Origin: an uncultured virus (IMG/VR IMGVR_UViG_3300027227_000002) | Lineage: Duplodnaviria > Heunggongvirae > Uroviricota > Caudoviricetes > Crassvirales | Length of the DNA: 26,502 nucleotides | IMG/VR virus record: IMGVR_UViG_3300027227_000002 | Strand: one strand, 5' to 3' | Shown: positions 3,595 to 26,502 of the stretch, one piece after another | Position numbering within the stretch: position 1 is the stretch's first letter | How the letters are laid out: each line of letters starts with the position of its first letter | The notes under the pieces: model-generated | What the model was told of the DNA's origin: nothing | Databases searched by the model: none | The model's input: the letters and a program-made list of their open reading frames with translations, nothing else | Translations under genes and position numbers: made by a program

Positions 3595-3595
3595 C

Positions 3596-3868: not shown

Positions 3869-3907
3869 AAAAAATGTTTAATGTTCAAAGTGAAATGCTA
3901 AGAGACA

Positions 3908-3915: not shown

Positions 3916-3919
3916 ATAC

Positions 3920-3951: not shown

Positions 3952-3980
3952 CTTTGTGGTGTGGCTTAGAAACTAAAAGA

Positions 3981-4250: not shown

Positions 4251-4277
4251 GTTGAATTAAATTTAGGTTAGTGAATA

Positions 4278-4655
4278 TTAACAGTCAACTGAATCCTCAT
4301 ATCCTTCTTGAGCCTTGAGATGCTCATATGCCTGTACAAGGATATCAGCGGCCTCTGCATCAATAGATGGAGTGAAGTTGTAGTGTGAACGATAGATGGG
4401 TTCAGCGTGAGCATCACGGGTGGCGATAGAAGCGTAGGTCGCTACTTCAAAGTTGCAACGCTGCACTTTAGCCCACACCTCTTCGGGTGCTGTTGCTACG
4501 GGAGGAACGGGGTTTCCGTCTTCGTCTACCGTAGGAGTCGCTGGGACGTAGTTATAAGACTTGACGTCAGAAGACTCGTAGTTGAGTCGGTTTACTTTGT
4601 GATAAGCTCCGGTAAATTCCATACCGAACTTGTCTACTGTAGCGGTTACTGCCAT
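4278..4655 (-). CDS. Hypothetical tail-fibre-associated protein
   Basis: 125 aa ending QAYEHLKAQEGYEDSVDC; lies downstream of the tail fibre genes. Confidence 0.75.
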   Translation of the reverse strand: MAVTATVDKFGMEFTGAYHKVNRLNYESSDVKSYNYVPATPTVDEDGNPVPPVATAPEEVWAKVQRCNFEVATYASIATRDAHAEPIYRSHYNFTPSIDAEAADILVQAYEHLKAQEGYEDSVDC

Positions 4656-4676
4656 TGTTTTGTTGTTTAAGAATTA

Positions 4677-4684
4677 CAAATATA
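4677..4684 (-). promoter_or_regulatory. Bacteroidetes-type -7 promoter box (TATATTTG)
   Basis: CAAATATA on +, 21 nt upstream of the ATG at 4655. Confidence 0.6.
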
Positions 4685-4688
4685 CAAA

Positions 4689-5078
4689 TTATTCACAAGA
4701 ATAAATATCATTGATCTTTCCATCTTCTCCAATTTGAATCAGTTTGGTTCCGCTTGGGTAGTAGAACCACTGATTGTTTCCGTTGAATATTTCTGTATTG
4801 TTGTCATAGATATAAGAGTTCACTGCTACCGGGTCGGTGCTTGAATAGTAGGATGCTGTTGTTGCGGTTGAACCATCTGAACATCCCTGCTCGGTATCGC
4901 CAAATCCAACATTGGACAGAGTTATTGCCGTAAGGGCACTATACCCATAGAACTCGGAGATAGCATCAGGGGTGCTAAATCCTGCAAGCCCAGAGAGGGT
5001 CCTCAGGCTATTGCTTGAGGAACCCAACTCTGTTTTGATTGCGCTGATAGATAACGCTCCGCTACTTGGTAAGGCCAT
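4689..5078 (-). CDS. Putative tail fibre tip/adhesin protein
   Basis: N-terminus MALPSSGALSISAIKTELG...ISEFYGYS resembles small genes that follow S74-chaperone fibres; overlaps the fibre's 3' end by 17 nt. Confidence 0.7.
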   Translation of the reverse strand: MALPSSGALSISAIKTELGSSSNSLRTLSGLAGFSTPDAISEFYGYSALTAITLSNVGFGDTEQGCSDGSTATTASYYSSTDPVAVNSYIYDNNTEIFNGNNQWFYYPSGTKLIQIGEDGKINDIYSCE

Positions 5079-9517: not shown

Positions 9518-12500
9518 TTATTTGTTCTCTAATTTTTGGATTCTATCGGACAACTCCTTAACCGTTTGCAAAAGTAAGACTGATAGTCTCGTGTAGTTTA
9601 GTGACTCAGGCTGTCCCTCGTCATTGTAATGTACAACCTCAGGGAATAGTTCTGCTACCTCTTCGGCAATCAAACCAATCTCTTGAGTTTGAGTTCCTAT
9701 CTTATTATATCGTACAGGACGAAGTGCATAAACCTTATCTGTTACAGGCTCAAGGTCAACGATGTTTTCCTTGTAACGTCTTGCCGATGTCTCTGAGAAT
9801 GTTCCTTGCACCTCTACATCGTATTGGAAAGTAACGCTTCCTGCTGCGATGATTTGTGGGTCAGGAGAAGATGTGCTCCAGTAGTTTGCGGTTGCGTGAT
9901 TACCCCAGCCGTAGGCTGTGTCCCAGTTAGAACTATTGTTAGAGAAGTCGCTAGAAGTCCAAACCTTTTCCCATCCGTGCCAACCTGATGACCCTTGACG
10001 AGCTCTCCAATACATTCTACCGGGAGTGTCACCAAACCAAAGTTGAGCCTGCCTATCGGCATCATTGGTGAGGTTAACCATAGTAAAGTAATTGGCATAC
10101 GGAATGTTTGAATTTGTTCCGTATTGGCTGTTACTATGATATACTCCCTGTGTGGTTAAGTCATTTAAGTTGGTATTTGCTAACTGAGATACTTGGTTGT
10201 ATAGAAATGCTGACGCTTGCAGTCCATCCACTGTATCTGCATCTAATCCTGAACCAGAACCATCGTTTCCTGCGTGCCAAACAGTGTTTGAGTTTACAGT
10301 TAAAGAACTAAAGTTTGTTTGAGATGTCGTACCGGAATTTCCAGTGATGCTCGTAGCAAGTCCTTTATATGGAACTTCCTGTATTAATTCGCAATCAGAC
10401 AGGTCTCTATCTTCCCAAGTCCAACCGGATGTGTATGAATCTAAAGAGTTGGAAGAATAGACACTCTCTACATATAGTTTTGGCCAATAGCTCGGATCGG
10501 GTATGTAAATAATTACATATCCATCAGGACTTTTTGCAAGGGTAATTGTTGGTGCCCAAGCGCCATTAGATATAGCGGTTCTATTGTAAAATTGGTCAGC
10601 ATAATAATGCCATCCAATAGATAGAGAAACCATTTGTGCGCTACCATATCTAAACCCTTTAATGTTTACTGTAAAGTCCGAACCTCCGTAGTTCCAAGGA
10701 ATAGTAGTCTTTATTCTATATTGAGCAGGGCTTGCGCCTGAATTTAAATCAAGTATGCCTAAAGAGAGCCTTCTGTTTTGCACCGATAAAGTGCCGGAAG
10801 ATGTGCTTAATCTTGATTTAATACTACTATTCCAATCAACAAAATTTACGTATTCTCCGCTGTTTCTTGGACCATAAGAAGAAGACCATAGTCCACCTGC
10901 ATATATTTCGTTTGCAAAACGAGCATTGCCGTTTACATCTAACTTATAACTAGGACTAGTCGTCCCAATACCTACATTTCCAGTGCTACCCGCAATGCGA
11001 ACGCTTTGAAAGAAACTTGTTCCATTGTGACTCCAGAAATCTATTCCTTGGCCAGAGCCACCAGCGCCCGATGCAATACCAAGACCCACACCACTTTGAT
11101 GGAATATCCCATAGTTAACTGTTGGAGTTGAGCCAGCAGTTCCAACCTTTATAGATTGACCGTGAAAAGCAGTAGCTGAAACGTAATTATTATCTACGCT
11201 CAGATATCCATATGGAATATGTATACGTCCAGAATTGTATCCAGAAGCTCCAGTATTTAATTCAATCGTGCCATTGTATCCAGCTACTATTCTTGCGTTT
11301 CTACCTGGGAATTCTAATCTGCCAGTATTTCCATCAAAGCCAACATACCCACCCCAAACATTGTCTTGGTCTTTAAACGTTATGTAGCTACCTAATCCGG
11401 TAAGATTAACCGCAGCTCCAGCAGCAGTAAAGTTTACGGTAGTAGCTGTAGATGCACCCCTTCCAGTAACAGTAGCTAATGTATCCGACTCTGCGGTAAT
11501 GAAACCAGCGTCCTCAATGTCAGAGACAGAAGCCATTTGACTTAGGTCTACCGTATTGCCGTTGCTAATGGTAAGCAGTTTCTCTGCTTGGTTCCACTCA
11601 AGTTCTTGTGAGTCTGTTTCAGAGGTGAGGTATCTACCATCAAGGTCAACGGTTACTGTTCCTCCGTCTTGTTGAGTAAGAGTTAATACACCGTCTGCAG
11701 TGTTAAACGAGGCAGAGTTAATCTTATCGTTGTAGGCTGTGTTCCAGTTAGTAGAATCACCACCTGTTGCGTAGTAAATACCAGCATAGATATTTTGTAG
11801 GCTGTCGTCTGCTCCGCCAGTAAGTCTAAATCCAGCATTGTTGTACCGTATCTGGCCCCAGTATCTGCTTCCCTGATGGAATCTTAACGATACGTACTTA
11901 GCCGAATCACCAGTGTCTGATGAGTATAACTCAAGGTTATAGTCGTTAGCTCCAGCGCTATGAGCTGCGTATGATATGCTTGACTGCCCAGTTACAGTTG
12001 CTGCTGTACTTGCACTTCCGGCAGAAGATGCATAATTTACAGACTGAGACCCAATATTTCCAGAGTGAACAAGAGTCGTCCAAGAAGTCCATACACCAGC
12101 AGCACTACGGCTTCTAAATGCCATAGTGCTAGTTGGGTCGGTATCAATATAAATCTGAGCTCCATATACTGATGTAGTTCCAGCCCAAGTCATACCTAAG
12201 ATATGACCATCGTTTCCGCCAGGTCCTAGAGCAAGTGTGTGAATAAAAGAATGCCCAGCGTCGGGAAGTGCTGAGTCTGCCGCAACAACAGTTGTTCCAT
12301 TAGGGCTAACGAGCTTTGTTGGTGTTGGAACACTTGTAATATACCCCTGACTAGTAACAAACTCCTCAGTAGCCAATCCATCCAACGTAACAGTATTACC
12401 GTTAGAGATAGTTAGGTTCTTACCTCCAGCTTCCCAATCAAGTGTTTGTGAGTCCGTCTCTGAGGTGAGGTAGCCTTGAGCTTGTACCCAAGTTCGAGTT

Positions 12501-14494
12501 GCTAAGACGTTACCATTCCAAGTTGCGTTACCAGAAGTTGAAAGACGAACTTCAGTTCCACCAGAACCCTGTATGTTTAGAATTGAATCGTTTACGTGAA
12601 TACCACCAATTTGTACCCCGCTGCGGTATGCAGATAGAGCCCATATACCCTCGGAAGCATTTACAGCAAACTTCTCATTTGATGCCGCCTCTCTTCCGAT
12701 ACCAACACCGTAAGTATTGATGTTTGAACGAACAGCTCCATTTACATAGAAGTCTGTTCTTCCGTGAGTATATGTGGCAGAATTTTTTTGTCCAGTTAAC
12801 TGCCCAATACTAAGTACACCACTAGCAGCACCTGGAGAGCCAGGAACATAATTAATCTCTATTTGCTGGTCCCAATCCCAAGATGATGAAATTACTAACG
12901 ATGGATTGTTGTTGCCAATTAGCCAAAGATGTCCATCCCCGTATCCAAGAAGGTCAACGGTGTTGTATCTAACACGCTCATAGCCTTGGCTAAGTCTAGC
13001 AACTACAGCATCGGTAGTTCCAAGAAGGTCTAATTTGTAAGAAGGGTTAGTTGTTCCAATACCAAGTCCATTCGGCTTAATAGTCGCAATCTGAGTGCCA
13101 CCAGTGCTGTGTGTGTCAGCAGTATGTGTCCAGAACTGAATCTCAGTAGCTGGATTTGACTCGTAAATATTACCACCAATTACAACAGCGTTCTGACCAT
13201 TCTGAGCAAGACCGCCAATAAGAGTAAAACCTTCTGGCTCCGTAGACGAATTAAAATGCTGTGCGGTAATGTATGCCCACTTAGGTGCGCCATCGCTGTA
13301 TGGACCAAGTTGAAGGTTACCACCAGCAGCATTACCAGCAGTTCTAATTTGAAGCGTAGTATTTGAAATATTACCTCTCGCCGCAACGGTTGCTAACGTA
13401 TCAGACTCAGCAGTCAAGTAATTACCCTGCGCTTGGAATGGTAAAGTAGAAAGGTCTACTGATTCGTTGTAAGCACCACCTTCACCAGTAAATACAAGGT
13501 TTGTGTCTACAACCTTTACATCTGAGATGTAGTTGTTCTCGTATGATGTTAGATACCCTGCTGATGCGTGATTACCCCATCCATAAGCGGTATTCCAGTT
13601 GGTAGAATTATTCGTAGTTGTGTACCAAGAGGAGGCTGTATAGATAGGGTCTGTCTCTGTATAGGAAGTTAGGTATCCTGCCTCACTATGGTCTCCCCAC
13701 CCATAGGCGGTATCCCAAGCAGTGATGTCCTCTGTTCTAACATTATAAGCAGCAGACTGTGTAAATACAGGGTCTGTCTCAGTAAACGAGGTAAGGTACC
13801 CTTGCTGACCTACCCAAGTCTCCGTAGCGTAGCCCGTAAGGTCTGTGGTGACCGTCTGCCAAGTGCCATCAGCACGCAAGAACTTTCCAGTATCATCAAA
13901 ACCCGAAGCAGGAACAAAACCGTTAGAGCCAGCAATAATAACCTCCTCGCCACCAACGACCTCAGAAGTCGCCTGAGTGAATACATTGTGCGTGTGGGAA
14001 GTAAGAGAATAGAGACCTGCGTGGTTACCCCACCCGTAAGCCGTGTCCCAGTTGCTTGAGTTGTTAATAGTGGTATACCAAGACGAAGCCGTATAAATAG
14101 GGTCAGACTCCGTATAAGAGGTTAAGAAGTTCGGAGACCAGTTAACCCAAGCACTTCCGTTCCAAGACAGCAACTGACCTACAGCCGTTGTGCCGATTGT
14201 TACATCACCAAGAGCGCCAATAGACGATGCGCTATTTAAAAACGATGGGGTCTTGTTATACCATACATTAACACCGGGGTCTCCGCCAAGCGGTTGCCCA
14301 TAAACTAAAATCTGATCAGCGGATGGGTTGCTAACCACAACATCAGTAAGCGAATTTAAATCTCCATAGGAAACGCTGCTTACATAATCGGTTCCAGCAA
14401 CAGCCTCAACTATTAGGCCGTCGGAATTAACCTTTAGTATCGATCCACTCGCAAGTCCCGCTAGTGTTACACTACTTAAAAATTTTTGAGACAT
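9518..14494 (-). CDS. Long tail fibre with C-terminal intramolecular chaperone (peptidase S74)
   Basis: 1658 aa with WDTAYGWGNHA and ESDTLATV repeats, GNVGIGTTSPS, GNDGSGSGLDAD and a knob-like NLNDLTTQGVY...W..W segment. C-terminal TSARRYKENIVDL...IGLIAEEV...LNYTRL. Confidence 0.92.
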   Translation of the reverse strand: MSQKFLSSVTLAGLASGSILKVNSDGLIVEAVAGTDYVSSVSYGDLNSLTDVVVSNPSADQILVYGQPLGGDPGVNVWYNKTPSFLNSASSIGALGDVTIGTTAVGQLLSWNGSAWVNWSPNFLTSYTESDPIYTASSWYTTINNSSNWDTAYGWGNHAGLYSLTSHTHNVFTQATSEVVGGEEVIIAGSNGFVPASGFDDTGKFLRADGTWQTVTTDLTGYATETWVGQQGYLTSFTETDPVFTQSAAYNVRTEDITAWDTAYGWGDHSEAGYLTSYTETDPIYTASSWYTTTNNSTNWNTAYGWGNHASAGYLTSYENNYISDVKVVDTNLVFTGEGGAYNESVDLSTLPFQAQGNYLTAESDTLATVAARGNISNTTLQIRTAGNAAGGNLQLGPYSDGAPKWAYITAQHFNSSTEPEGFTLIGGLAQNGQNAVVIGGNIYESNPATEIQFWTHTADTHSTGGTQIATIKPNGLGIGTTNPSYKLDLLGTTDAVVARLSQGYERVRYNTVDLLGYGDGHLWLIGNNNPSLVISSSWDWDQQIEINYVPGSPGAASGVLSIGQLTGQKNSATYTHGRTDFYVNGAVRSNINTYGVGIGREAASNEKFAVNASEGIWALSAYRSGVQIGGIHVNDSILNIQGSGGTEVRLSTSGNATWNGNVLATRTWVQAQGYLTSETDSQTLDWEAGGKNLTISNGNTVTLDGLATEEFVTSQGYITSVPTPTKLVSPNGTTVVAADSALPDAGHSFIHTLALGPGGNDGHILGMTWAGTTSVYGAQIYIDTDPTSTMAFRSRSAAGVWTSWTTLVHSGNIGSQSVNYASSAGSASTAATVTGQSSISYAAHSAGANDYNLELYSSDTGDSAKYVSLRFHQGSRYWGQIRYNNAGFRLTGGADDSLQNIYAGIYYATGGDSTNWNTAYNDKINSASFNTADGVLTLTQQDGGTVTVDLDGRYLTSETDSQELEWNQAEKLLTISNGNTVDLSQMASVSDIEDAGFITAESDTLATVTGRGASTATTVNFTAAGAAVNLTGLGSYITFKDQDNVWGGYVGFDGNTGRLEFPGRNARIVAGYNGTIELNTGASGYNSGRIHIPYGYLSVDNNYVSATAFHGQSIKVGTAGSTPTVNYGIFHQSGVGLGIASGAGGSGQGIDFWSHNGTSFFQSVRIAGSTGNVGIGTTSPSYKLDVNGNARFANEIYAGGLWSSSYGPRNSGEYVNFVDWNSSIKSRLSTSSGTLSVQNRRLSLGILDLNSGASPAQYRIKTTIPWNYGGSDFTVNIKGFRYGSAQMVSLSIGWHYYADQFYNRTAISNGAWAPTITLAKSPDGYVIIYIPDPSYWPKLYVESVYSSNSLDSYTSGWTWEDRDLSDCELIQEVPYKGLATSITGNSGTTSQTNFSSLTVNSNTVWHAGNDGSGSGLDADTVDGLQASAFLYNQVSQLANTNLNDLTTQGVYHSNSQYGTNSNIPYANYFTMVNLTNDADRQAQLWFGDTPGRMYWRARQGSSGWHGWEKVWTSSDFSNNSSNWDTAYGWGNHATANYWSTSSPDPQIIAAGSVTFQYDVEVQGTFSETSARRYKENIVDLEPVTDKVYALRPVRYNKIGTQTQEIGLIAEEVAELFPEVVHYNDEGQPESLNYTRLSVLLLQTVKELSDRIQKLENK

Positions 14495-17717: not shown

Positions 17718-17896
17718 CGTCCCTTTATTTTTTTAATCTTAGACTTCAGCTTACTTATCTTACGCTCGTAGTTCATCTTGTCCTCCATGCGTCGCGCATA
17801 GATGGAACGCATGATGGGCACCGACAGCGCGAACCCAAGGGCCAGCACCACCACTAGCAGCGACACGAGTGTTATACTATAGTCACTCACTGTCAT
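17714..17896 (-). CDS. Small single-TM protein with basic coiled tail
   Basis: 60 aa; overlaps the groEL end by 14 nt and the groES start by ATGA. Confidence 0.6.
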   Translation of the reverse strand: MTVSDYSITLVSLLVVVLALGFALSVPIMRSIYARRMEDKMNYERKISKLKSKIKKIKGR

Positions 17897-19493
17897 AGGA
17901 TCGTGCCATCGTCACGACGGCGTTAGTACTAAGGATGGTCGTCGCTACACTGACGGCGTTCTTAAGGGCGTTCTTAGTGACCTTAAGGGGGTCGATGATA
18001 CCCATCTTATACATGTCGCCGTAGCACATCCCCTTGACGTCGTACCCCTTGTTGTCCTTATTGATGTCGAACATTATCTCCTTGGAGGAGAGCCCGGCGT
18101 TCTCAAGGATCTGCCCCAAGGGCGCTGCGAGGGCGTATGTCATGATGTCGTGGGCTATAATAGTAGCCGTATTGCTTGAGTGCATCTTATACTCGGCCTT
18201 CTGCACGAACAGGTAGTCGGACTGCTGCCATAGCGCGACACCCCCTCCGGGTAGTATGCCCTCCTCAAGGGCAGAGCGCACGGCACATACAGCGTCATCG
18301 ACGCGGTCGTATGTCTCCTTCTGCTCCACGTCGGAGTTCCCACCGACGTATATGACGCCTATCCCTCCCGTCAGGCTGGCTATACGCTGCTTGATGAAGT
18401 CACGGTCGCCCTTCTTCTGTGCGGCGTCGTGTGCACCCCATAGCTCAGCGACGCGCTTGTCGACCTCCACATTCTCACCATCATTACGCATGATGACCGT
18501 AGAGTCCTTGCCGACGATCACCTTGGCGGCACGGCCAAGGTCCGACATAGTAATAAGACTGAGGTCATCGCCCATAGCCTCACTAATGAACCGACCGCCG
18601 ACACTAACGGCAATGTCGCCCATGAGCTCCTGCTGCTTGTACCCAAACTGTGGGGGGACGATAGTACAGAGCTTCAGCCCATTCTTAATGACGTTGGCCG
18701 CCAGTGTGTTGTTGACCTGTGCGCTCACAGGCCCTACAATCAGCAAGTGCTTGCCGCCAGATATAATAGGCTTGAGGATACCCTCAATAGACAGCACGTT
18801 ACTAATCTCGTGGTCCGTCAGCAGGATGAACACGTCCTCGAGCACACACTCGTCCTTCTTATGGTTGTTGACGAACATCTTGTTGGCGTACCCACGGTCA
18901 ATCTTAATCCCGTCCGTTACCTCATAGTATGTCTGCTCGCCCATACTCTTCTCGACGGTCACAAGCCCGTTGTCACCAACCTCCTTGTATGCCTTGGCGA
19001 TGATGGACCCAATGACGGGGTCGTTATTAGCAGAGATAGACGCTACGTCATTAAGTCGTCGTGCACTGACCTTACGCGATGAGCGCTCAAGACGCCCAAT
19101 GACCTCGCCGCTGAGGCGGTTGATCTCACGTATCACCTCCGTAGCGTTGACGTCATCATTAATAAGCTCCAGCCCGCGCGTAGCGATGGCCTCCGTCAGC
19201 ACAATGGCCGTCGTCGTGCCGTCACCCGCCGTCGTAGAAGTGCGGTCAGCGGCCTCCTTCATCATGCGTACCGCAAGGTTCTCAATAGGGTGCAACAGGT
19301 CGATGCTCTTAGCTACTGTCACACCGTCCTTAGTTACAGTGATCCCGTGTGTGTGGTGCTGACTCTCAATGAGCACAGTCTTGCCGCGAGGACCGAGGGT
19401 ACTCTTGACGGCCTTACTAATTTTTCGGATGCCTTCACTCAAATGATGACGCGCGTCAGCGTCGAAGGTCAGTTGCTTGGGAGTGTAGTCCAT
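17883..19493 (-). CDS. groEL: Chaperonin GroEL (phage-encoded)
   Basis: VKSTLGPRG, TKDGVTVAK, AGDGTTTA, DRVDDAVCAVRSALEEGILPGGG and GIIDPLKV motifs; 536 aa with no GGM tail. Confidence 0.97.
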   Translation of the reverse strand: MDYTPKQLTFDADARHHLSEGIRKISKAVKSTLGPRGKTVLIESQHHTHGITVTKDGVTVAKSIDLLHPIENLAVRMMKEAADRTSTTAGDGTTTAIVLTEAIATRGLELINDDVNATEVIREINRLSGEVIGRLERSSRKVSARRLNDVASISANNDPVIGSIIAKAYKEVGDNGLVTVEKSMGEQTYYEVTDGIKIDRGYANKMFVNNHKKDECVLEDVFILLTDHEISNVLSIEGILKPIISGGKHLLIVGPVSAQVNNTLAANVIKNGLKLCTIVPPQFGYKQQELMGDIAVSVGGRFISEAMGDDLSLITMSDLGRAAKVIVGKDSTVIMRNDGENVEVDKRVAELWGAHDAAQKKGDRDFIKQRIASLTGGIGVIYVGGNSDVEQKETYDRVDDAVCAVRSALEEGILPGGGVALWQQSDYLFVQKAEYKMHSSNTATIIAHDIMTYALAAPLGQILENAGLSSKEIMFDINKDNKGYDVKGMCYGDMYKMGIIDPLKVTKNALKNAVSVATTILSTNAVVTMARSYDSE

Positions 19494-19517
19494 AACTTGA
19501 TTTGATTAGTAGTATGC

Positions 19518-19525
19518 CAAAGATA
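19518..19525 (-). promoter_or_regulatory. Bacteroidetes-type -7 promoter box (TATCTTTG) for groEL
   Basis: CAAAGATA on +, 24 nt upstream of the groEL ATG. Confidence 0.65.
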
Positions 19526-19552
19526 CAAAGGGCACTACCAATATCAAAGTCC

Positions 19553-19762
19553 ATGACAGAATGTCGATTTTACTTCCTCCCTATACTACTACTACTATTT
19601 ACTATACTGAAAGAAAAAAAATCTGTGGGAAACTGGGGTAAAAATGAGCATTTCTGTCATTTCCTATTTAACTTACTGATATATAATTAGTTATACTTTC
19701 TATTTCTGTCATAAAATGAGCACTAAAATGACAATAATTGTCACTTATTAACAGATTGTTAA
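19553..19762. repeat. AT-rich non-coding region with direct and inverted TGACA/TGTCA and AAAATGAGCA repeats
   Basis: ATTTCTGTCAT at 19650 and 19702; AAAATGAGCA at 19641 and 19713; ATGACAGAAT at 19553; palindrome TGACAAT-A-ATTGTCA at 19729-19743; TAC triplet run at ~19584-19596. Confidence 0.7.
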
Positions 19763-19790
19763 TTACTATTAGAGAAAAAAGAACCTATAG

Positions 19791-19818
19791 AAAAGAGAAA
19801 AGGGGACCGAAGCCCCCT
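19791..19818 (-). terminator. Possible Rho-independent terminator
   Basis: GGGG-ACCGAAG-CCCC hairpin with an adjacent A-rich run, just past the stop of 19846..20046. Confidence 0.5.
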
Positions 19819-19845
19819 AATCTAACCAACCAAATATGCGACTAA

Positions 19846-20046
19846 TCACTTTCGCATTCCTTCGCCTTCCATCAGATCCATCATTGCATCCATCCGGGTA
19901 GCGCGGGCAGTATTACGCTGTGCACTTAGCTGTGTTGCGTTAGCAGCAGCAGCCATACGAGACACCTTCGTAATCCCCATCTCATTCGTGGGCATGTTGT
20001 TGATCAATCGACCATCAACAACCTTCATGTCAATCATCTTTTTCAT
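19846..20046 (-). CDS. Hypothetical protein (66 aa)
   Basis: Met-rich ORF (VVDGRLIN) starting 1 nt after the upstream stop. Confidence 0.65.
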   Translation of the reverse strand: MKKMIDMKVVDGRLINNMPTNEMGITKVSRMAAAANATQLSAQRNTARATRMDAMMDLMEGEGMRK

Positions 20047-20047
20047 A

Positions 20048-20197
20048 TTACCAGTACTTAATGTGTAAACTAATTAAACCTAAATAGAGAATCCACTCCC
20101 CAACCTCTTCATCCTCGTCGCGTAGGTAAATAGAAAAACCAATTAGCGGTCCAGTTAAAATCCTGTTCTGTATCTCTATCTGCCAAAAGTCGACCAT
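20048..20197 (-). CDS. Small hypothetical protein (49 aa)
   Basis: Hand translation: MVDFWQIEIQNRILTGPLIGFSIYLRDEDEEVGEWILYLGLISLHIKYW*. A variant -7 box TACCTTTA lies at 20202-20209. Confidence 0.6.
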   Translation of the reverse strand: MVDFWQIEIQNRILTGPLIGFSIYLRDEDEEVGEWILYLGLISLHIKYW

Positions 20198-20622
20198 AGG
20201 GTAAAGGTACAAAATATATTAGACGTCTGTAGGTATTGGGTTATACCCCCACCACGCGCGCACGACCCGCCACGGAAAACCGATTTATTTTCGGGAGGGG
20301 GGGTGCGATTTCACGATTTTTTCCCGGATTTTTTGCCGTTTTCCCGGAAGACATTAGCCCACCATCAGCCGTCCACCCGTGCAATCATTGGGCATTTTAC
20401 ACGCACGCAAACAACAAGCAGTCAGCCCGCAATCGGCCGCGCCACGCCCGCCGCGCACACATAAAAGAAAGCGAACGGCAAGAGAGAGCCGTTAGCCCCC
20501 GCGCCCAATCCGTTCTCCTTAAATCTGCGAAGATTCCATTTTGAGCAAGGGAGCCTAATCTTGTATGTTGCTGATAGTCAGCGCATTTGAATCCCATACG
20601 AAAAAACTTTTTAATGTGCAAG

Positions 20623-20655
20623 TTTTTTTTTCCAAAACCTTCGCCATACACTTGC
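20623..20655 (+). promoter_or_regulatory. Putative early promoter (T-tract, CAAAACCTT, then TACACTTG)
   Basis: Lies upstream of the first + strand gene; a second copy with identical spacing is at 23879-23910; it ends in a variant of TAnnTTTG. Confidence 0.5.
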
Positions 20656-20676
20656 CCTATCAATATAAAAATCAAC

Positions 20677-20913
20677 ATGACCATGACTGCAATCAACCCC
20701 AAGAATCAGAAGCAAGTGAACAAGGCCATCAAGTACTTGACTGACCACAATGCCTATGACCTAAAGCGCAACGAAGCCGAAGGAAACGACGACATGAAGG
20801 CGTACAAGAAGTACGACCGGTTGTGTGAATCCACCTTTGACAAGTACTTGGATGCTATTGAGTTTCTGCCCAAGAATCAGGTAGACGCCATCATGAAGAG
20901 CGAACTTTATTAA
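20677..20913 (+). CDS. Hypothetical early protein
   Basis: Likely start is the ATG at 20677 or 20683 after an A-rich leader; first gene of the + strand array. Confidence 0.75.
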   Translation: MTMTAINPKNQKQVNKAIKYLTDHNAYDLKRNEAEGNDDMKAYKKYDRLCESTFDKYLDAIEFLPKNQVDAIMKSELY

Positions 20914-20933
20914 TCAATCAATCAATCAAGAAC

Positions 20934-21128
20934 ATGAAAACATTCTATGTTTACTCAATCAACACCAATGGTGAAGTCGTTTCTGCGGAATACGGAATCA
21001 AGGCCAAATCTCGCCTTGATGCTATAGAAAAATCAAGTGTAGAGAAGGTTTATTGGGAAGGAAGCCGGCCGTATGGTGTGAAGTACATCGGGAGCAAGTA
21101 CAAGGTCTATGCTAAACTACAAGGTTAA
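20934..21128 (+). CDS. Hypothetical early protein (64 aa)
   Basis: A-rich (AATC)n leader; the last codons GGT TAA form the 5' arm of hammerhead 1. Confidence 0.75.
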   Translation: MKTFYVYSINTNGEVVSAEYGIKAKSRLDAIEKSSVEKVYWEGSRPYGVKYIGSKYKVYAKLQG

Positions 21129-21172
21129 CTGACGAGGATTTAATATCCGAAACGCCGTGAGGCGTATTAACC
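21123..21172 (+). ncRNA. Type I hammerhead ribozyme HH1
   Basis: Stem I GGTTAA/TTAACC; core CTGACGA; stem II GGAT-TTAAT-ATCC; GAAA; stem III CGCC-GTGA-GGCG (GNRA loop); triplet GUA, predicted cleavage after 21166. Confidence 0.95.
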
Positions 21173-21189
21173 AAATAAAAAAAACTGAC

Positions 21190-21744
21190 ATGGCTATTAT
21201 CGCAACGGGAAAAGAATACAAACTTCAGTTAGGCACAATTCAAGAACTCGATGCCGTCATTAAGATGGTCATCAAAGGAATTCCTGACGGATTCTTTGAC
21301 TTCCAATCGAAAGGAAATCAATTCGCCACACTTGACTTGAGGGCCGACCTATCATGTGACGACCAACCACCCGTGTTCTTGGATATGTTCTACAACGGGC
21401 TAATCACGAACTACTTCCAAAACTACGACATAGAGTTGGTCACGACGCAGTCGGATTACGAGAAGGCAAGCAAGAAGTTGAATGCGGTCAACCCACGAGC
21501 ATGTTGGGAGGATGTCTTGCTACAGGTATTATCTGACGGAAATCTCGTCTTCGAAGATCGCTACCAAGGGATGACGATTGAACTCGACTTAAGTAAGGTG
21601 GGAAGCAACTTCCTGAATGCCTTCAACGATGCGCCTGATTACTTTATGGAACTTGTACTACTTCACGCCAACGGAGGGTCGGACGGAATCACCTACGACT
21701 CTTGGCTTCAAATGGGGACATACGGAGAAGTAATCTACGGATAG
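21190..21744 (+). CDS. Hypothetical early protein (184 aa; C-terminal WLQMGTYGEVIYG)
   Basis: Likely start is the ATG at 21190, since the track's GTG at 21157 lies inside the ribozyme. Acidic; the D..lQ....GE..YG end motif is one I recall from uncharacterised phage proteins. Confidence 0.8.
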   Translation: MAIIATGKEYKLQLGTIQELDAVIKMVIKGIPDGFFDFQSKGNQFATLDLRADLSCDDQPPVFLDMFYNGLITNYFQNYDIELVTTQSDYEKASKKLNAVNPRACWEDVLLQVLSDGNLVFEDRYQGMTIELDLSKVGSNFLNAFNDAPDYFMELVLLHANGGSDGITYDSWLQMGTYGEVIYG

Positions 21745-21795
21745 GTTAACTGACGAGTCCTAAATGGACGAAACCTGCTTCGGCAGGTCTTAACC
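21744..21795 (+). ncRNA. Type I hammerhead ribozyme HH2
   Basis: Stem I GGTTAA/TTAACC; CTGACGA; stem II GTCC-TAAAT-GGAC; GAAA; stem III CCTGC-TTCG-GCAGG (cUUCGg loop); triplet GUC, predicted cleavage after 21789. Confidence 0.97.
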
Positions 21796-21810
21796 AACAA
21801 AATAATCACG

Positions 21811-22110
21811 ATGAAAAACATCACAAACGAATCCGTTCAAGCGTTTATGAATGCTGTTCCCTTCAAGAAATCCAATATGCGGGTTGAAGTTTTAGAGAAC
21901 GTCACGATTCTGCGTCTACACGGAAATGTTATTGCGTACCGCTACAATGACCCTGAACGTACTTTGTCCATCACGAACTGCGGATGGTTCAGCAAAACGA
22001 CAAAGGAGCGTCTGAATGGAATCCCGAGCGTATCAATCAAGCAGAAAAACTTCAATTGGTACTTGAATGGTACTGAATGGAATGGTGATTTAATTGACAT
22101 TAAAGGTTAA
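21811..22110 (+). CDS. Hypothetical early protein (99 aa; LHGNVIA...GWFSKTTKERLN...Q....WY)
   Basis: ORF with an A-rich leader between HH2 and HH3; ends GGT TAA in the HH3 stem I arm. Confidence 0.85.
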   Translation: MKNITNESVQAFMNAVPFKKSNMRVEVLENVTILRLHGNVIAYRYNDPERTLSITNCGWFSKTTKERLNGIPSVSIKQKNFNWYLNGTEWNGDLIDIKG

Positions 22111-22161
22111 CTGACGAGGATTCAATATCCGAAATGCCGACTACACATCGGCATCTTAACC
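22105..22161 (+). ncRNA. Type I hammerhead ribozyme HH3
   Basis: Stem I GGTTAA/TTAACC; CTGACGA; stem II GGAT-TCAAT-ATCC; GAAA; stem III TGCCGA-CTACACA-TCGGCA; triplet AUC, predicted cleavage after 22155. Confidence 0.95.
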
Positions 22162-22179
22162 AACTAAATCAACAATACT

Positions 22180-22410
22180 ATGAAAACAATTGATGACTAC
22201 AAAAAGATGCCGAAAAGCGCACTTGCGGAGAAATGGTTTTGGCTACATAACATTCCGACCACATTCCTTGGAGAGGTTGTTTGGTTAGATTTTGGGAATT
22301 TTGAAATCGAAGTAGCGGAATCGGATGTTGAGTATAGAGCGAATGAATTCCTTCGCCTATTAGAAAATGACTTGATAAAACAGCCATTCAAGGGAATTTT
22401 ATTGGATTAA
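22180..22410 (+). CDS. Hypothetical early protein (76 aa)
   Basis: ORF between HH3 and HH4 with an A-rich leader. Confidence 0.8.
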   Translation: MKTIDDYKKMPKSALAEKWFWLHNIPTTFLGEVVWLDFGNFEIEVAESDVEYRANEFLRLLENDLIKQPFKGILLD

Positions 22411-22415
22411 ATTTA

Positions 22416-22472
22416 GGCATACTGATGAGGGCTGAATGCCCGAAACACGGACTACACATCCGTGTCTATGTC
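22416..22472 (+). ncRNA. Type I hammerhead ribozyme HH4
   Basis: Stem I GGCATA/TATGTC (one G-U; extendable with bulges to 22402/22485); CTGATGA; stem II GGGC-TGAAT-GCCC; GAAA; stem III CACGGA-CTACACA-TCCGTG; triplet GUC, predicted cleavage after 22466. Confidence 0.95.
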
Positions 22473-22499
22473 AAATTTTAACCAACGCAAACAATTACA

Positions 22500-22898
22500 A
22501 TGAAAACCACGACTGAAGTTGAATGCATGAATGATTGGTGCGACTTTACCCACGAGAAGGGGTACTGCACTTGTGATAATGAATCTTTAAATGAGAAGAC
22601 GATGAAGAAATCAAATGAATTTGTGGCTACTTGCCCCGCACTTGTTTGGTCAGCAGAAGATGTTGACCTCAACATTGACCGACTCTATGAGTCAGAGGTT
22701 ATTGACCATGTGAGTGCAAACAAACTAAAGGAGATATCTAATGAAGACAAACTTCTTTGGTTAGAGCAGATACTTGAGGATTGTCACGATGAGTTTTGTC
22801 AGATTATCAATGAGCGAATCGGAGATGCTATCTACGACTACTATCGCAGTACGCCTATGGGTAAGGAAGAAGTTGGTTACATTAAATACAATAAGTAA
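22500..22898 (+). CDS. Hypothetical acidic early protein (132 aa; N-terminal Cys cluster)
   Basis: ORF directly after HH4; CMNDWC...CTC near the N-terminus. Confidence 0.75.
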   Translation: MKTTTEVECMNDWCDFTHEKGYCTCDNESLNEKTMKKSNEFVATCPALVWSAEDVDLNIDRLYESEVIDHVSANKLKEISNEDKLLWLEQILEDCHDEFCQIINERIGDAIYDYYRSTPMGKEEVGYIKYNK

Positions 22899-23183
22899 AT
22901 GGAAGCGTATCTTAAATTCTTGAACGACCCCAACCCGCCAACACATTTGGCGGAGGATGAGTTGTGGGAGTACTATGGTGGAGATTGCTATGGCGACATC
23001 TCTTACTATGCCTTCTTACTATGTAGGTTTGGCGAAGCATCTAATTGGACTACGGCTATGATTATGGCTGACAAGTGGTCGGATTGGGATAGGCAAAACA
23101 AAACCCTTACTGAAGGAATGAGTGGTTACGACTCGTTACTGCATTGGTTGAATGTTGAATATGTTGGACTTTATTATAAGTAA
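22899..23183 (+). CDS. Hypothetical early protein (94 aa)
   Basis: Abuts the upstream stop (TAA-ATG). Confidence 0.75.
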   Translation: MEAYLKFLNDPNPPTHLAEDELWEYYGGDCYGDISYYAFLLCRFGEASNWTTAMIMADKWSDWDRQNKTLTEGMSGYDSLLHWLNVEYVGLYYK

Positions 23184-23229
23184 GATGACGACCTTATTTA
23201 AAAACGAGGAGTAAAACAAAAACTACAAT

Positions 23230-23427
23230 ATGATACTCTTTGAATATCACGAATCAGACGATGACGATGCATCTATCTACGGCTTGACCTTCGAGGAGGT
23301 CAACGATTGGATACAAGACCACAACGAGTACTACGAAACCAACTACCAAACTATTCAGGAGTTTAATGATGGTGAAATGTACCGGGAGTTTATTGTAAGT
23401 GAAATGGAAAACGCAAATCTAAATTAA
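23230..23427 (+). CDS. Small highly acidic protein (65 aa)
   Basis: D/E-rich and aromatic-rich, with no Lys and one Arg; A-rich leader. Confidence 0.75.
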   Translation: MILFEYHESDDDDASIYGLTFEEVNDWIQDHNEYYETNYQTIQEFNDGEMYREFIVSEMENANLN

Positions 23428-23429
23428 AT

Positions 23430-23696
23430 ATGAAGGCAAGAATGACAACAATCTCCGAGCATGAGTTCATGCCGTGCGATGCGGAGGTATTGTTCACTTG
23501 GGTGGACGAGAACGGGAATTCCGGGTGGAATTCTGCATACGGCAAGGCCGGTCAAAGCATCAAGGAAGTCCTTGATGGTCGCATGAAGAGAATGTATTCC
23601 AATTGGGATGGTTCTTATGAGATGATGCGGAACATGTCCGTGTCTATTGATGTAAGCGGAAAGTCCGTTAACACACTCTTATCCTTGACTCGTTGA
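23430..23696 (+). CDS. Hypothetical early protein (88 aa)
   Basis: Starts 2 nt after the upstream stop. Confidence 0.7.
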   Translation: MKARMTTISEHEFMPCDAEVLFTWVDENGNSGWNSAYGKAGQSIKEVLDGRMKRMYSNWDGSYEMMRNMSVSIDVSGKSVNTLLSLTR

Positions 23697-23699
23697 GTC

Positions 23700-23840
23700 A
23701 TGGATAAAAAAACAATGATTAATGAAATCATGGCTGACCACGCTTGGATTAATTCCAAGAATGTGAATCCCAAACGAAGAGGAATCCTCCGGGACATTGA
23801 GGCCATCGTGGAGGACTTGTGTGAAACACACGACTACTGA
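23700..23840 (+). CDS. Small hypothetical protein (46 aa)
   Basis: Hand translation: MDKKTMINEIMADHAWINSKNVNPKRRGILRDIEAIVEDLCETHDY*; fills the gap. Confidence 0.6.
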   Translation: MDKKTMINEIMADHAWINSKNVNPKRRGILRDIEAIVEDLCETHDY

Positions 23841-23878
23841 TTCGGGTAGCCGTACAACAAAAATAGTTACTGACCAAA

Positions 23879-23910
23879 TTTTTTATTCAAAACCTTATTC
23901 AAACATTTGC
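23879..23910 (+). promoter_or_regulatory. Putative early promoter, second copy (T-tract, CAAAACCTT, then AACATTTG)
   Basis: Aligns without gaps to the 20624-20655 element; ATG follows 4 nt after the TTTG. Confidence 0.5.
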
Positions 23911-23913
23911 AAT

Positions 23914-24141
23914 ATGGAAACAACAAGAGAAGCCCTCCTCGCCATGCGAGTGGGAGAGATGAAGGACATCGTGTTCAGCAACGGCGTCCTCAATAGCACC
24001 AAAGAGATGTGCCGAAACTCCGATGTGGAGTGGGAGGTGAATAGTTTCACCGAGGGGTGGATAACCGCCTACATGACCTTGGAAGAGGCCGTGGATTATG
24101 TAGAGGGCCGTAAGGGCTTTGATGACTTTGAGTGGGAATAA
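23914..24141 (+). CDS. Hypothetical early protein (75 aa)
   Basis: Likely start is the ATG at 23914 (METTREALL...). Confidence 0.7.
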   Translation: METTREALLAMRVGEMKDIVFSNGVLNSTKEMCRNSDVEWEVNSFTEGWITAYMTLEEAVDYVEGRKGFDDFEWE

Positions 24142-24151
24142 TTTATTGATT

Positions 24152-24412
24152 ATGAGAAACAAAGAGCAACCATGGGAAGTGTTTGATGGGGGTGTCTACG
24201 AAGACCTCCTCCTTGACACCCAAATTGAATACAAAGCCGAGCGCATTGTAGCAGAGGACGAGTGGGGTACTGAAATTCAGTACCATGTGTACGATGTGCG
24301 GGTGACCTTGCGTCACAACAAGCACCAAGTAGGCGTCCATTTGGACAATCTCTTTAAGTATGAACTTGAGGAAACCATCGGCAGTTACCTCACTAAACTT
24401 TACGAACGATGA
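24152..24412 (+). CDS. Hypothetical early protein (86 aa)
   Basis: Likely start is the ATG at 24152 (MRNKEQPW...); ATGA overlap with the next gene. Confidence 0.7.
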   Translation: MRNKEQPWEVFDGGVYEDLLLDTQIEYKAERIVAEDEWGTEIQYHVYDVRVTLRHNKHQVGVHLDNLFKYELEETIGSYLTKLYER

Positions 24413-24612
24413 AAATTAAATTCAATGGTGATAGCATTGCTATCTACACCTCAACCAACGGACACCAAACGAAAGTCCGCATCGACCACATGGTCAGAGA
24501 CGAGCGTTGTCTTGGAGGACACAAGGTCCACATCAAGACAATCGCCAAAGGGAGACCAAGCAAGAGCCCCTTCCGCTATGCTCCTATTAATAGAATAAAG
24601 TTTTTGTCATGA
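24409..24612 (+). CDS. Basic hypothetical protein (67 aa)
   Basis: ATGA overlaps at both ends. Confidence 0.7.
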   Translation: MKIKFNGDSIAIYTSTNGHQTKVRIDHMVRDERCLGGHKVHIKTIAKGRPSKSPFRYAPINRIKFLS

Positions 24613-24779
24613 AGAAGATAGCATCGGGACTTGTGTTCTTACTATTCATTTTTATTTCCCTTGCGGGAATCACTCTTGGTGCTATGTTCTACCAAGAGGG
24701 TGTCAACGAAGGCATGGGCATAGCCCTTATTTCCGCCACCATTTTTCTGCTTTTATTAATCACACCTAAAGAAAATTAA
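24609..24779 (+). CDS. Small two-TM membrane protein (56 aa)
   Basis: Hand translation: MKKIASGLVFLLFIFISLAGITLGAMFYQEGVNEGMGIALISATIFLLLLITPKEN*. Confidence 0.7.
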   Translation: MKKIASGLVFLLFIFISLAGITLGAMFYQEGVNEGMGIALISATIFLLLLITPKEN

Positions 24780-24781
24780 TC

Positions 24782-25534
24782 ATGCCGAATTGGGTATATT
24801 CTACAATCAAAACGAAAGCAAAGAATGAAGCGTTCGTTAAGGAAGTCATGGACAAAGGGGGACTCTGCGAGTTCTACTTACCCATGCCGGATGAAATCCG
24901 TTTCACCAACTCCCCAAACCGAATCATAAGCAAGGAAGAGTACGCCATCAAGGAGGCCTTGGGGCAGACGAGAGAAGAGGAAAAACACATGGTCGGTTAT
25001 TATCAGACACAAGAGATGGTTGATCAACTCAAGGCCAAGTACGGAGCAGCGAATTGGTACGAGTGGGCGTACATCTATTGGGGCACGAAGTGGGGCGATG
25101 GCCAGATGGAGTATCAAGTTGCGGGGGATGACCTTATTATTAGGTACCAAAGCGCATGGTCACCCGTGAGTTGGGACATCGTTGAGAACTTCATCGGTCA
25201 CCTTGTTGATGCCGACTACATTTGGGAGGAGGAGCAAGGATTCGGGGCGCAAATCATCTATGAGGATGGGCAGTTCGCGAGCATGGTAGAGTGGGACATC
25301 CCGGTCTTCAGCCATTGGGCGTACTTGGATAGCGACACACCATCAAACGACTTGGATGGAAAGCCACGCGAGGGTAAGTTTGTACAGATTGTTTACGCCT
25401 ATCTTTCGGAGGAATTTGAGAATAATATGGGCGTATACGAGAAGGGGTGGCACTGCTATTCAGAGTGGCATAGCGAGAGCAGTCTCGTCACTGACCCCGA
25501 GTTAATTGCTAAACTTGAATCTGTCAAGGAATGA
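24782..25534 (+). CDS. DUF1281/YubB-like ferredoxin-like domain protein
   Basis: Signature MPNW at the N-terminus, NWYEW....WGTKW and Y.SAWSP. Confidence 0.8.
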   Translation: MPNWVYSTIKTKAKNEAFVKEVMDKGGLCEFYLPMPDEIRFTNSPNRIISKEEYAIKEALGQTREEEKHMVGYYQTQEMVDQLKAKYGAANWYEWAYIYWGTKWGDGQMEYQVAGDDLIIRYQSAWSPVSWDIVENFIGHLVDADYIWEEEQGFGAQIIYEDGQFASMVEWDIPVFSHWAYLDSDTPSNDLDGKPREGKFVQIVYAYLSEEFENNMGVYEKGWHCYSEWHSESSLVTDPELIAKLESVKE

Positions 25535-25671
25535 AAAAGAATGATAAGGTCATGGAGCAGTTCATGCGAATTGCAATGGCGAGACTAAAGAGCGACTACC
25601 GATTTGCGCCACAACGCAGAGCAATTGCCGCCCGTATGTATACTAAATGGTTAAATAGGAATGATGTTTAA
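25531..25671 (+). CDS. Small basic hypothetical protein (46 aa)
   Basis: Hand translation: MKKNDKVMEQFMRIAMARLKSDYRFAPQRRAIAARMYTKWLNRNDV*; ATGA overlap. Confidence 0.65.
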   Translation: MKKNDKVMEQFMRIAMARLKSDYRFAPQRRAIAARMYTKWLNRNDV

Positions 25672-25822
25672 GTTGACCTTTGTACCTACCCTACGCAACA
25701 ACCTTGCGGTTAAAAGTTGTGTGTTCATGCGCCAAGCCAATTCGGCAGAGGAGTTAGCGAACATGAAGTACGATGTGCCGAACCCTCTTGAATGGATGTT
25801 AGAATCTATTGAAGAGATGTGA
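25661..25822 (+). CDS. Small hypothetical protein (53 aa)
   Basis: Hand translation: MMFKLTFVPTLRNNLAVKSCVFMRQANSAEELANMKYDVPNPLEWMLESIEEM*. Confidence 0.55.
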   Translation: MMFKLTFVPTLRNNLAVKSCVFMRQANSAEELANMKYDVPNPLEWMLESIEEM

Positions 25823-25823
25823 G

Positions 25824-26048
25824 ATGGAGTACCTTGAAGAGAAGAGGTGCAACTCGTGTCACCAAATGAAGTCCGCTGATCGTTTCACAATACAAAAGAA
25901 GAACGGCGTTGACTCCTACTATAAGGGGAGATGCAAGGACTGCTATGTGGAGTACCGCAGAAAGCGCAAGGCATTAGGAAGCAAAGAGGGTGTGCGTGTA
26001 GACCCCGGCAAGGATAGTCCTCCGTGGAAGCACATCTCTTGGCTGTGA
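25824..26048 (+). CDS. Small CxxC...CxxC zinc-finger protein
   Basis: KRCNSCHQMKSADRF...CKDC resembles the Zn finger found N-terminal to many phage HNH/EndoVII proteins; no nuclease domain follows. Confidence 0.7.
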   Translation: MEYLEEKRCNSCHQMKSADRFTIQKKNGVDSYYKGRCKDCYVEYRRKRKALGSKEGVRVDPGKDSPPWKHISWL

Positions 26049-26375
26049 GTTGGTCTTGGGGGGGTGGTGGATGTAATGGATGATGGAAGCCACCTCTCCC
26101 CACTCAGTCAAAGTGTAAAATGAAAACACCACAAAGTGTAAAATACTGCACCTTAACACGGAAAAATTTAGAATTACGCAAGAATTTATACCAATAGTGC
26201 AATACTCGGCACAAAAATGAACCAAAAGTGTGACAATATCTCAAATCGCAATACGCAATAAATCAAATGAGATGATGGAAAGCCCCACCATTAAAGGATG
26301 TTAAGGCATATAATGATGGGAAAAGAAATCAAATCATACGCAACAACATATAGAAACCTTTAACACCAAAGAGAA

Positions 26376-26502
26376 ATGAAAAACAAAATGGCAAAATTTA
26401 AGAAAGGCGACCGAGTTCGCTACATTAGAGAAGTTGGAGATGATGGTGTCGTGTCTGGAAGTTTGGGTACTGTAGATGAAAACGACAGCATTAGCCCCTA
26501 TG
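26376..26502 (+). CDS. Hypothetical protein with KOW/SH3-like start (partial)
   Basis: MKNKMAKFKKGDRVRYIREVGDDGVVSGSLGTVDE..., open at the window end. Confidence 0.7.
   Translation, partial: MKNKMAKFKKGDRVRYIREVGDDGVVSGSLGTVDENDSISPY

Follow-up and report, generated by a model that had tools for sequence, protein, structure and literature searches.

A 26,502-nucleotide (nt) stretch of DNA from an uncultured virus of the Crassvirales, IMG/VR record IMGVR_UViG_3300027227_000002 (hereafter the window), carries four hammerhead ribozyme motifs, HH1 to HH4, on its plus strand, three of which have the same stem I arms, GGUUAA and UUAACC. In our analysis this array probably serves transcript processing of a kind already known from phages, and the shared arm is probably the joint outcome of an arm type common to the lineage, of a leader element placed at a set distance from start codons and of cassette exchange at the ribozyme modules. 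An earlier sequence-only reading of the window had proposed that single-gene RNAs released by the hammerheads could close into circular mRNAs, for which the identical arms would provide the matching ends.

The four motifs were found by direct reading and by a descriptor scan and lie within 1.35 kb among five consecutive small open reading frames (ORFs), all on one strand, as is characteristic of clustered phage hammerheads. HH1 spans 21123-21172, with the predicted cut between A21166 and U21167, HH2 spans 21744-21795 (cut between C21789 and U21790) and HH3 spans 22105-22161 (cut between C22155 and U22156); in all three the arms are GGUUAA/UUAACC, in agreement with the sequence-only reading. 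HH4 (22416-22472, cut between C22466 and U22467) has the arms GGCAUA/UAUGUC, which include one G-U pair. The conserved core CUGA(C/U)GA...GAAA is present in each motif, with every expected position occupied (C3 U4 G5 A6 N7 G8 A9, G12 A13 A14, A15.1-U16.1, and an H17 that is not G, being A, C, C and C from HH1 to HH4). Stem I has 6 base pairs (bp) and stem II 4 bp with a 5-nt loop throughout, and stem III has 5-7 bp with a loop of 4-8 nt. As the 6-bp stem I is open and stems II and III are closed by loops, the motifs are of type I.

Behind their identical arms, HH1, HH2 and HH3 vary in stems II and III by compensated changes. Stem II reads GGAU-UUAAU-AUCC in HH1 and GUCC-UAAAU-GGAC in HH2; stem III reads ACGCC-GUGA-GGCGU in HH1, ACCUGC-UUCG-GCAGGU in HH2 and AUGCCG-ACUACACA-UCGGCAU in HH3, while that of HH4 is ACACGG-ACUACACA-UCCGUGU. 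The 8-nt loop common to HH3 and HH4 (22139-22150 and 22450-22461) thus sits on stems that differ by compensated changes, and it is also found in a copy in G001, the nearest relative described below.

The descriptor scan of both strands of the window returned these four matches on the plus strand and none on the minus strand, and of 200 dinucleotide shuffles of the window, 199 had no match and one had a single match, which excludes a chance origin of the four motifs. Rfam gave no match at its gathering score anywhere in the window; with E-values up to 10, Hammerhead_1 (RF00163) reported HH2 alone, at 30.2 bits (E 8e-4, gathering score 34). The window motifs share with RF00163 the core, a stem I that is open and a stem II of 4 bp whose loop is of the GUCC-UAAAU-GGAC type, and differ from it in their longer stem III, to which, and not to the core, we attribute the omission of HH1, HH3 and HH4. 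A covariance model built from 70 phage hammerheads and the four window motifs (R1) gave HH1 66.2, HH2 69.2, HH3 56 and HH4 54 bits, scores that are high partly by construction since the motifs belong to the training set, with the next-best match in the window at 9.6 bits. The R1 search returned no fifth hammerhead in the window and none downstream of HH4.

The 5' end of every ribozyme lies at or within the stop codon of the preceding ORF, and its predicted cut is 21-36 nt ahead of the next ATG. HH1 follows an ORF of 64 amino acids (aa) at 20934-21128 (plus strand; no Pfam or PHROG match), whose TAA stop (21126-21128) makes up the last three bases of the 5' arm GGTTAA. The same holds for the TAA at 22108-22110 in HH3, and in HH2 a TAG stop (21742-21744) overlaps the first G of the 5' arm. 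Cleavage at successive sites would release three units from the plus strand. Unit 1 (21167-21789, 623 nt) consists of a 23-nt leader starting with UUAACCAA, ORF184 (21190-21744, 184 aa from its ATG) and the HH2 body; unit 2 (21790-22155, 366 nt) of a 21-nt leader, ORF99 (21811-22110, 99 aa; PF23790 Kyano_Gp96, phrog_554) and the HH3 body; and unit 3 (22156-22466, 311 nt) of a 24-nt leader, ORF76 (22180-22410, 76 aa) and the HH4 body. The extents of these units, the single ORF in each of the first two, the self-complementary ends UUAACC and GGUUAA of units 1 and 2 and the mismatched ends of unit 3 (UUAACC against GGCAUA) had all been described correctly by the sequence-only reading.

The 3' arm forms part of a more regular feature. 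TTAACCA occurs on the plus strand at 21167, 21790, 22156 and 22478, which is 23, 21, 24 and 22 nt, respectively, ahead of the start codons of four consecutive genes. The last of these copies belongs to the leader element UUAACCAAC (22478-22486, plus strand), located 22 nt before the ATG at 22500 of ORF132 (22500-22898, plus strand, 132 aa), the first gene past the array. It takes part in no stem I and is set off from the HH4 arm UAUGUC by 5 further bases. Because this copy lies outside any stem I, the spacing of UUAACCAA from the start codon is kept even in a place without ribozyme pairing.

We propose that cleavage during transcription turns a polycistronic transcript into linear mRNAs of one gene each. 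A folded ribozyme with a 2',3'-cyclic phosphate would remain at the 3' end of each upstream piece, and each downstream piece would begin with a short A-rich leader bearing a 5'-OH, which is UUAACCAA in three of four cases. Stem I of HH1, HH2 and HH3 would be tied to the leader element, which has a fixed spacing from the start codon, and the ribozyme-plus-leader modules would, in addition, mark cassette boundaries. Circles would be transient at most, arising by the reverse reaction or through a host ligase and being cut again, and would constitute a minor species at best. Between the hammerheads we found no promoter-like or terminator-like sites except for one weak promoter-like site inside ORF184, and neither kind is enriched over 19400-26502 (14 promoter-like sites versus 14.6 in shuffles, 8 terminator-like sites versus 6.6).

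Clustered hammerheads flanking single genes or short gene blocks have been described in prophages and phages, the named examples including prophage clusters of Agrobacterium and Clostridium, and their proposed role is to divide long transcripts into mRNAs of single genes (Perreault et al. 2011, PMC3088659). For other clusters, cleavage has been demonstrated both in vitro and in E. coli (PMC3088659). The window resembles these clusters in having several same-strand hammerheads between small phage genes of varying identity; it differs from them in that its hammerheads are all of type I, with a 6-bp stem I and an A.A cap, in that three of four share one arm and in that the arm contains a stop codon. 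In the literature searched we found neither the GGUUAA/UUAACC arm type nor homogeneous arms within one genome described, although the alignments in Dataset S1 of PMC3088659 may contain such cases. Helix III of type I motifs is usually short in eukaryotic retroelements and longer in bacteria and phages, as it is in the window (Lopez-Galiano et al. 2026, PMC13725137). The same study reports type I hammerheads in the 5' untranslated regions of RNA viruses, where cleavage is needed for translation initiation. The likeness to the window is that a type I ribozyme directly upstream of an ORF creates, by cleavage, the 5' end of a translated RNA; the difference is that the RNA-virus motifs serve eukaryotic cap-independent translation and are without clear loop-loop contacts, whereas the window belongs to a DNA phage.

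The arm shared by HH1, HH2 and HH3 is widespread. A scan of viral contigs with a pattern consisting of the 5' arm and the core matched at least 125 loci, with 99 unique full hammerheads among the matches listed, and the flanks of these loci contained further hammerheads, unselected by the pattern, which mostly had the same arms. As this pattern was biased toward the GGUUAA arm, a second scan was anchored on stem II and the core only. It yielded 113 unique matches, of which 103 were full type I hammerheads, and 17 of these had GGUUAA/UUAACC, the most frequent of 46 arm pairs; other recurrent pairs were GGUACA/UGUAUC (11), GCAUAA/UUAUGC (7) and GUCUAA/UUAGAC (7). Judged from these sequences, GGUUAA/UUAACC is the commonest arm type of a widespread lineage of phage hammerheads and not a local adaptation.

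Several properties of the window motifs recur across this lineage. Among 135 unique hammerheads, stem I is 6 bp long, with the unforced positions 5 and 6 paired in 98% and 92%, respectively, and with five pair types at position 5; position 7, above stem I, is A.A in 90. Loop II has 5 nt in the 124 hammerheads with a 13-nt stem II stretch, and together with the conserved A.A cap it suggests that a tertiary contact has been kept. The first ATG is found most frequently 20-26 nt past the cut, and a stop triplet forms the last three bases of the 5' arm in 68 of the 135, about half. In an alignment of 74 phage hammerheads, 99.5% of cells were paired and 11 of 13 pairs changed on both sides, figures to be read with the caveat that the scan that supplied the sequences demanded minima of 4, 3 and 3 pairs. 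The covariation score was 0.68, a value reached by none of 500 shuffles, compared with at most 0.07 in slid controls, in which only 27-35% of cells were paired.

The searches also brought up further arrays and variants. A 51-kb contig (L128) has at least nine type I hammerheads within 4.3 kb (1613-5834; nine R1 matches in the record G002), with the 3' arm UUAAUC throughout, the 5' arm GAUUAA or GGUUAA, and near-identical leaders. In G001 (locus L255, reverse strand) and in a contig discussed below (L260, at 1432-1489 and 1794-1849), we found variant hammerheads with one extra U between the CUGAUGA core and stem II (CUGAUGAU), which the strict scan misses and which R1 scores at 50-58 bits. We had taken the G001 form as a U.C mismatch, an interpretation dropped after comparison with L260, since one extra U before stem II describes it better.

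If the ends of a unit were selected to match, the arms of neighbouring hammerheads should be compatible. We compared 56 unique adjacent pairs from the arm-unbiased set, in which some loci are related and some pairs may skip a copy because the scan misses variants such as CUGAUGAU. The arms were identical in 26 pairs. Defining full compatibility as 6/6 pairing of the downstream 5' arm with the upstream 3' arm, as a circle requires, 34 of the 56 pairs were fully compatible, as opposed to 12.8 ± 2.3 with partners shuffled across loci (maximum 21 in 2000 shuffles); the other 22 were not, nine of them having four pairs or fewer. Only one of the 26 identical-arm pairs had the same stem II and two had the same stem III, so these neighbours are not fresh duplicates. 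In the remaining 30 pairs, whose arms differ, the pairing that a circle needs was full in nine and the reciprocal pairing, which is irrelevant to it, in 12. Over the pairs compared, arms are therefore homogeneous within a genome, as the circular proposal would predict, yet the signal has no direction. In mixed arrays such as L176, L194 and L205, pairing is perfect inside each ribozyme and mismatched between neighbours.

Comparison with the nearest virus record among those compared, a 15.9-kb fragment (G001), shows how the modules differ between close relatives. The two are 95-98% identical over window positions 19549-20921 and 23426-26112, and the interval between differs. There, the order in the window is ORF64, HH1, ORF184, HH2, ORF99, HH3, ORF76, HH4, ORF132, ORF94, ORF65. 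The interval in G001 starts with a 63-aa ORF, a hammerhead with the arms GGUUGA/UCAACC, an ORF of about 88 aa and the orthologous leader UAACCAAAUAAAAAAAACUGACAUG without a hammerhead. It continues with ORF184 (88% nt identity), a ribozyme body identical to that of HH3, a leader and an unrelated 244-aa ORF, and ends with a hammerhead that has the stem III of HH1 and an extra U after the core, a leader and an 88-aa ORF equivalent to the one at window position 23430. In the pairwise alignment, identity runs to GGTTAACTGACGAG, whereupon G001 goes on with the HH3 body; about 361 nt, corresponding to the unit 2 module, are absent from G001, and this indel is bounded by the repeat GGTTAACTGACGAG. 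The ORF132 leader (window 22478-22502) agrees in 22 of 25 bases with the leader of the unrelated 244-aa gene, a leader that in G001 comes directly after the HH3-type ribozyme.

Such mosaic differences of whole cassettes at the ribozyme-plus-leader module point to DNA recombination or gene conversion between modules, and from this alignment the module is one that behaves as an exchangeable intergenic linker. A broader screen for identical ribozymes in different contexts yielded 25 pairs, 21 with similar downstream flanks and only one with both flanks unlike, and was uninformative. In the one pair of genomes compared in this way, the window and G001, we thus find a repeated intergenic module at the boundaries of indels and replacements, as in the PeSL cassettes of T4-type phages, reportedly the subject of work by Comeau and colleagues in 2014. 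Both are short conserved intergenic modules between small non-essential genes, located where close relatives differ by indels or replacements. They differ in composition, since a PeSL cassette comprises a promoter and a terminator stem-loop, a composition not found in the window module, which comprises a self-cleaving ribozyme and a leader. PeSL cassettes mediate shuffling of small genes and form DNA mini-circles (Arbiol et al. 2010, PMC2839356).

The association of the ribozymes with the genes of the first two units is variable. Homologues of ORF184 were found in four viral contigs. In two of them (L256, 97% aa identity; L258, the locus in G001, 89%) a hammerhead comes right after the stop codon, in a third (L259, 83%) no hammerhead follows the gene, and the fourth (L257, 97%) ends at it. 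The window (HH2), L256 and L258 have three different ribozyme bodies behind the same arms after these genes. The scan for ORF99 gave eight loci, one of them marginal (L267). The homologue in L260 (93% aa identity) is flanked by two GGUUAA/UUAACC hammerheads with different bodies, forming a 360-nt unit, and a more distant one (L266, 53%) has one hammerhead after its stop codon. No flanking hammerhead was present in the other five of the seven clear homologues, nor in the marginal one.

We next consider whether circles could form and last. Tandem ribozymes are known to yield circular RNAs in retrozymes, in viroids and possibly in totiviruses (PMC13725137, PMC6765202), and in the named infectious circular RNAs the motifs are almost exclusively of type III (PMC13725137). 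With retrozymes and viroid or satellite RNAs, units 1 and 2 have in common that two ribozymes of the same polarity would free a unit whose 5'-OH and cyclic phosphate ends can rebuild a ribozyme, which unit 3 cannot do. Units of the retrozyme and viroid type are non-coding or replicating and are closed by a host tRNA ligase, whereas those of the window are protein-coding phage genes with stop codons. For pairing between the 5' UUAACC and the free 3' arm (GGUUAA in units 1 and 2), in silico folding gives a probability of about 0.93 in unit 2, of 0 in unit 3 and, in unit 1, of 0.55 at 15 °C, falling to 0.08 at 37 °C. The arm duplex of 6 bp is predicted to be weak, at about -4 kcal/mol at 37 °C, a temperature at which HH2 within unit 1 is predicted to have its 5' half mispaired.

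Folding unit 2 as a circle at 37 °C retained all three hammerhead helices in the minimum-free-energy structure, with pairing probabilities of about 0.75 for stem I and of 0.75-1.0 for stems II and III. As an intact ribozyme is predicted to refold, the circle should cut itself again, and no alternative stable fold hiding the ribozyme was found in silico. Viroid and satellite circles avoid re-cleavage by folding into rods; unlike in these, the ribozyme fold persists in the predicted unit 2 circle. As to ligation, RtcB (PF01139) was not found in any of six array-bearing virus records, of which two are at least 90% complete, and Pfam detected no RtcB or other ligase domain among the small ORFs of the window, where PF23790 was the only match (1 of 24 ORFs). 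It is possible that a host ligase would close the units.

RNA evidence came from the assembled contigs (Logan) of four metatranscriptome runs that contain this phage, X19 to X22, with a depth mostly below 10. These contigs show neither joints nor clustered ends, which is no evidence either way since low-depth contigs lose rare forms and ends, and positions 22117-22318 are uncovered in all four. One loose-ended contig of X21 at 21743-21774 is not a back-junction. It matches only the 5' half of HH2, then has a different stem III and the arm UUAAUC, and is another hammerhead locus of the same community.

In weighing these results, we start with the circular proposal, which we regard as improbable. 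In it, units 1 and 2 would pair UUAACC with GGUUAA, the reverse reaction or an RtcB-type ligase would turn them into circular mRNAs that resist exonucleases, or they would undergo shuffled joining, and the arm would be kept for this purpose. The type I topology, in which the upstream fragment retains both the catalytic body and the cyclic phosphate (PMC3088659), is the right one for it, the predicted end helix is strong in unit 2, appreciable in unit 1 at 15 °C and nil in the mismatched unit 3, and it would account for the excess of end-compatible neighbours, for a stem I that stays constant while stems II and III drift, and for the recurrence of the unit 2 module with matched arms in L260, in keeping with the circles known from tandem ribozymes elsewhere. 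Yet the neighbour signal is as strong in the irrelevant direction, and 22 of 56 pairs fall short of full compatibility; HH4 breaks the arm pattern, and beyond it UUAACCAAC recurs as a leader outside any stem I. The predicted fold of a unit 2 circle implies renewed cutting, and unit 1 is predicted to leave its ends unpaired at 37 °C; the duplex of the arms is weak, and both arms would probably lie where ribosomes terminate or initiate. RtcB is missing from the array-bearing records, and Perreault et al., who already raised circular or spliced products of clustered phage hammerheads, so that the idea is not new, detected neither (data not shown; PMC3088659). What stands of the earlier claim is that the topology allows circles; the step to circular mRNAs and to arms maintained for them finds no support, given an arm that is lineage-wide, a compatibility signal without direction, a leader that persists outside stem I and a circle expected to re-cut. 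As a significant product, circles are improbable. A two-level version, in which one stem I across the lineage lets units fit any ribozyme body and be closed or re-joined by the reverse reaction or host RtcB, while the same repeats drive gain and loss of cassettes in the DNA, is compatible with the excess of matching neighbours (34 of 56 versus about 13) and with the unit-sized indel in G001, and we likewise think it unlikely.

The identity of the arms might also be mainly a by-product at the DNA level, with a PeSL-like intergenic linker at which recombination swaps small genes and homogenises arms, cleavage being incidental to their sameness. The comparison with G001 favours this, in that flanks of 95-98% identity enclose differences of whole modules, including the indel of about 361 nt bounded by GGTTAACTGACGAG, and the ORF132 leader matches that of an unrelated gene; so do the ribozyme bodies after ORF184 genes of 88-97% identity, of which there are three unrelated ones with a common arm and core, and the shuffling and DNA mini-circles known for PeSL cassettes (PMC2839356). 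The repeats are short, however, with 14-20 identical bases, only one genome pair is informative and the broader screen gave nothing, mixed-arm arrays exist, and the upkeep of intact, covarying ribozymes would go unexplained. As a full account we consider it rather unlikely, but it is compatible with transcript processing and does not exclude it. Less probable still is that the motifs stay uncleaved in vivo, through misfolding in a long transcript or unwinding by ribosomes, and act only as 3' hairpins or spacers. In favour of this, three of the four cut sites are spanned by RNA-library contigs, folding of unit 1 at 37 °C predicts mispairing of the 5' half of HH2, and identical arms may permit mispairing between neighbouring ribozymes. 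Against it, the spanning contigs have a low depth and could derive from DNA, the core is canonical in all four motifs, the helices covary, the conserved A.A cap and 5-nt loop II hint that a tertiary contact has been maintained, and other clustered phage hammerheads do cleave in vitro and in E. coli (PMC3088659). Transcript processing, which we favour, has observations of its own to contend with. The ribozymes are dispensable for ORF99, as five of seven clear homologues are without flanking hammerheads; contigs of the RNA libraries span the cut sites of HH1, HH2 and HH4 (X19 record 2, X21 records 19 and 21), although uncut RNA and contaminating DNA are indistinguishable here and these contigs decide nothing; HH2 is the only motif detected by Rfam, and below the gathering threshold; an excess of matching neighbour arms is also expected under selection for compatible ends; the view of the modules as cassette boundaries relies mainly on one pairwise comparison, the wider screen being uninformative; and the cleavage is predicted, its benefit to the phage presumed.

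What the many hammerheads of phage genomes do is a question that dates from 2011, their role was still listed as unresolved in a 2019 review (PMC6765202), and the locus offers a clean test case, with four canonical ribozymes, each extending from a stop codon to a leader, three of them with interchangeable ends and one a natural mismatch control. If the processing reading is right, the ribozymes would act as natural insulators, providing every small early gene with a defined 5' leader of its own and with a structured 3' end, and if the module is a site of cassette swaps, an RNA-processing element would be linked to the mosaicism of phage genomes. Circular phage mRNAs, if they existed, would be a real surprise, and nothing in our analysis points to them.

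The window is phage DNA. Its genes include a GroEL-like one and two very large ones for tail fibres, and many of its small ORFs have no family assignment; the array is located at the start of a plus-strand block of small genes. A blastn search against the phage collection gave no match for the window; its DNA was found in marine metagenomes and in estuary metatranscriptome libraries. Upstream of HH1, a short TCAA repeat, TCAATCAATCAATCAA, occupies 20913-20933 between a stop codon at 20913 and the ATG at 20934, and homology to G001 ends within it, at 20921. A strong GC-rich hairpin followed by a T run at 3920-3990 is terminator-like in both directions and had weak chance matches to Rfam leader families. 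The phage-encoded GroEL-like chaperonin (17883-19493, minus strand) matches phrog_5725 with an E-value of 3e-133. The giant tail-fibre genes are adjacent on the minus strand (5062-9516 and 9518-14494; 1484 and 1658 aa), and both have related C-terminal domains that match distal long tail fibre and tail fibre families.

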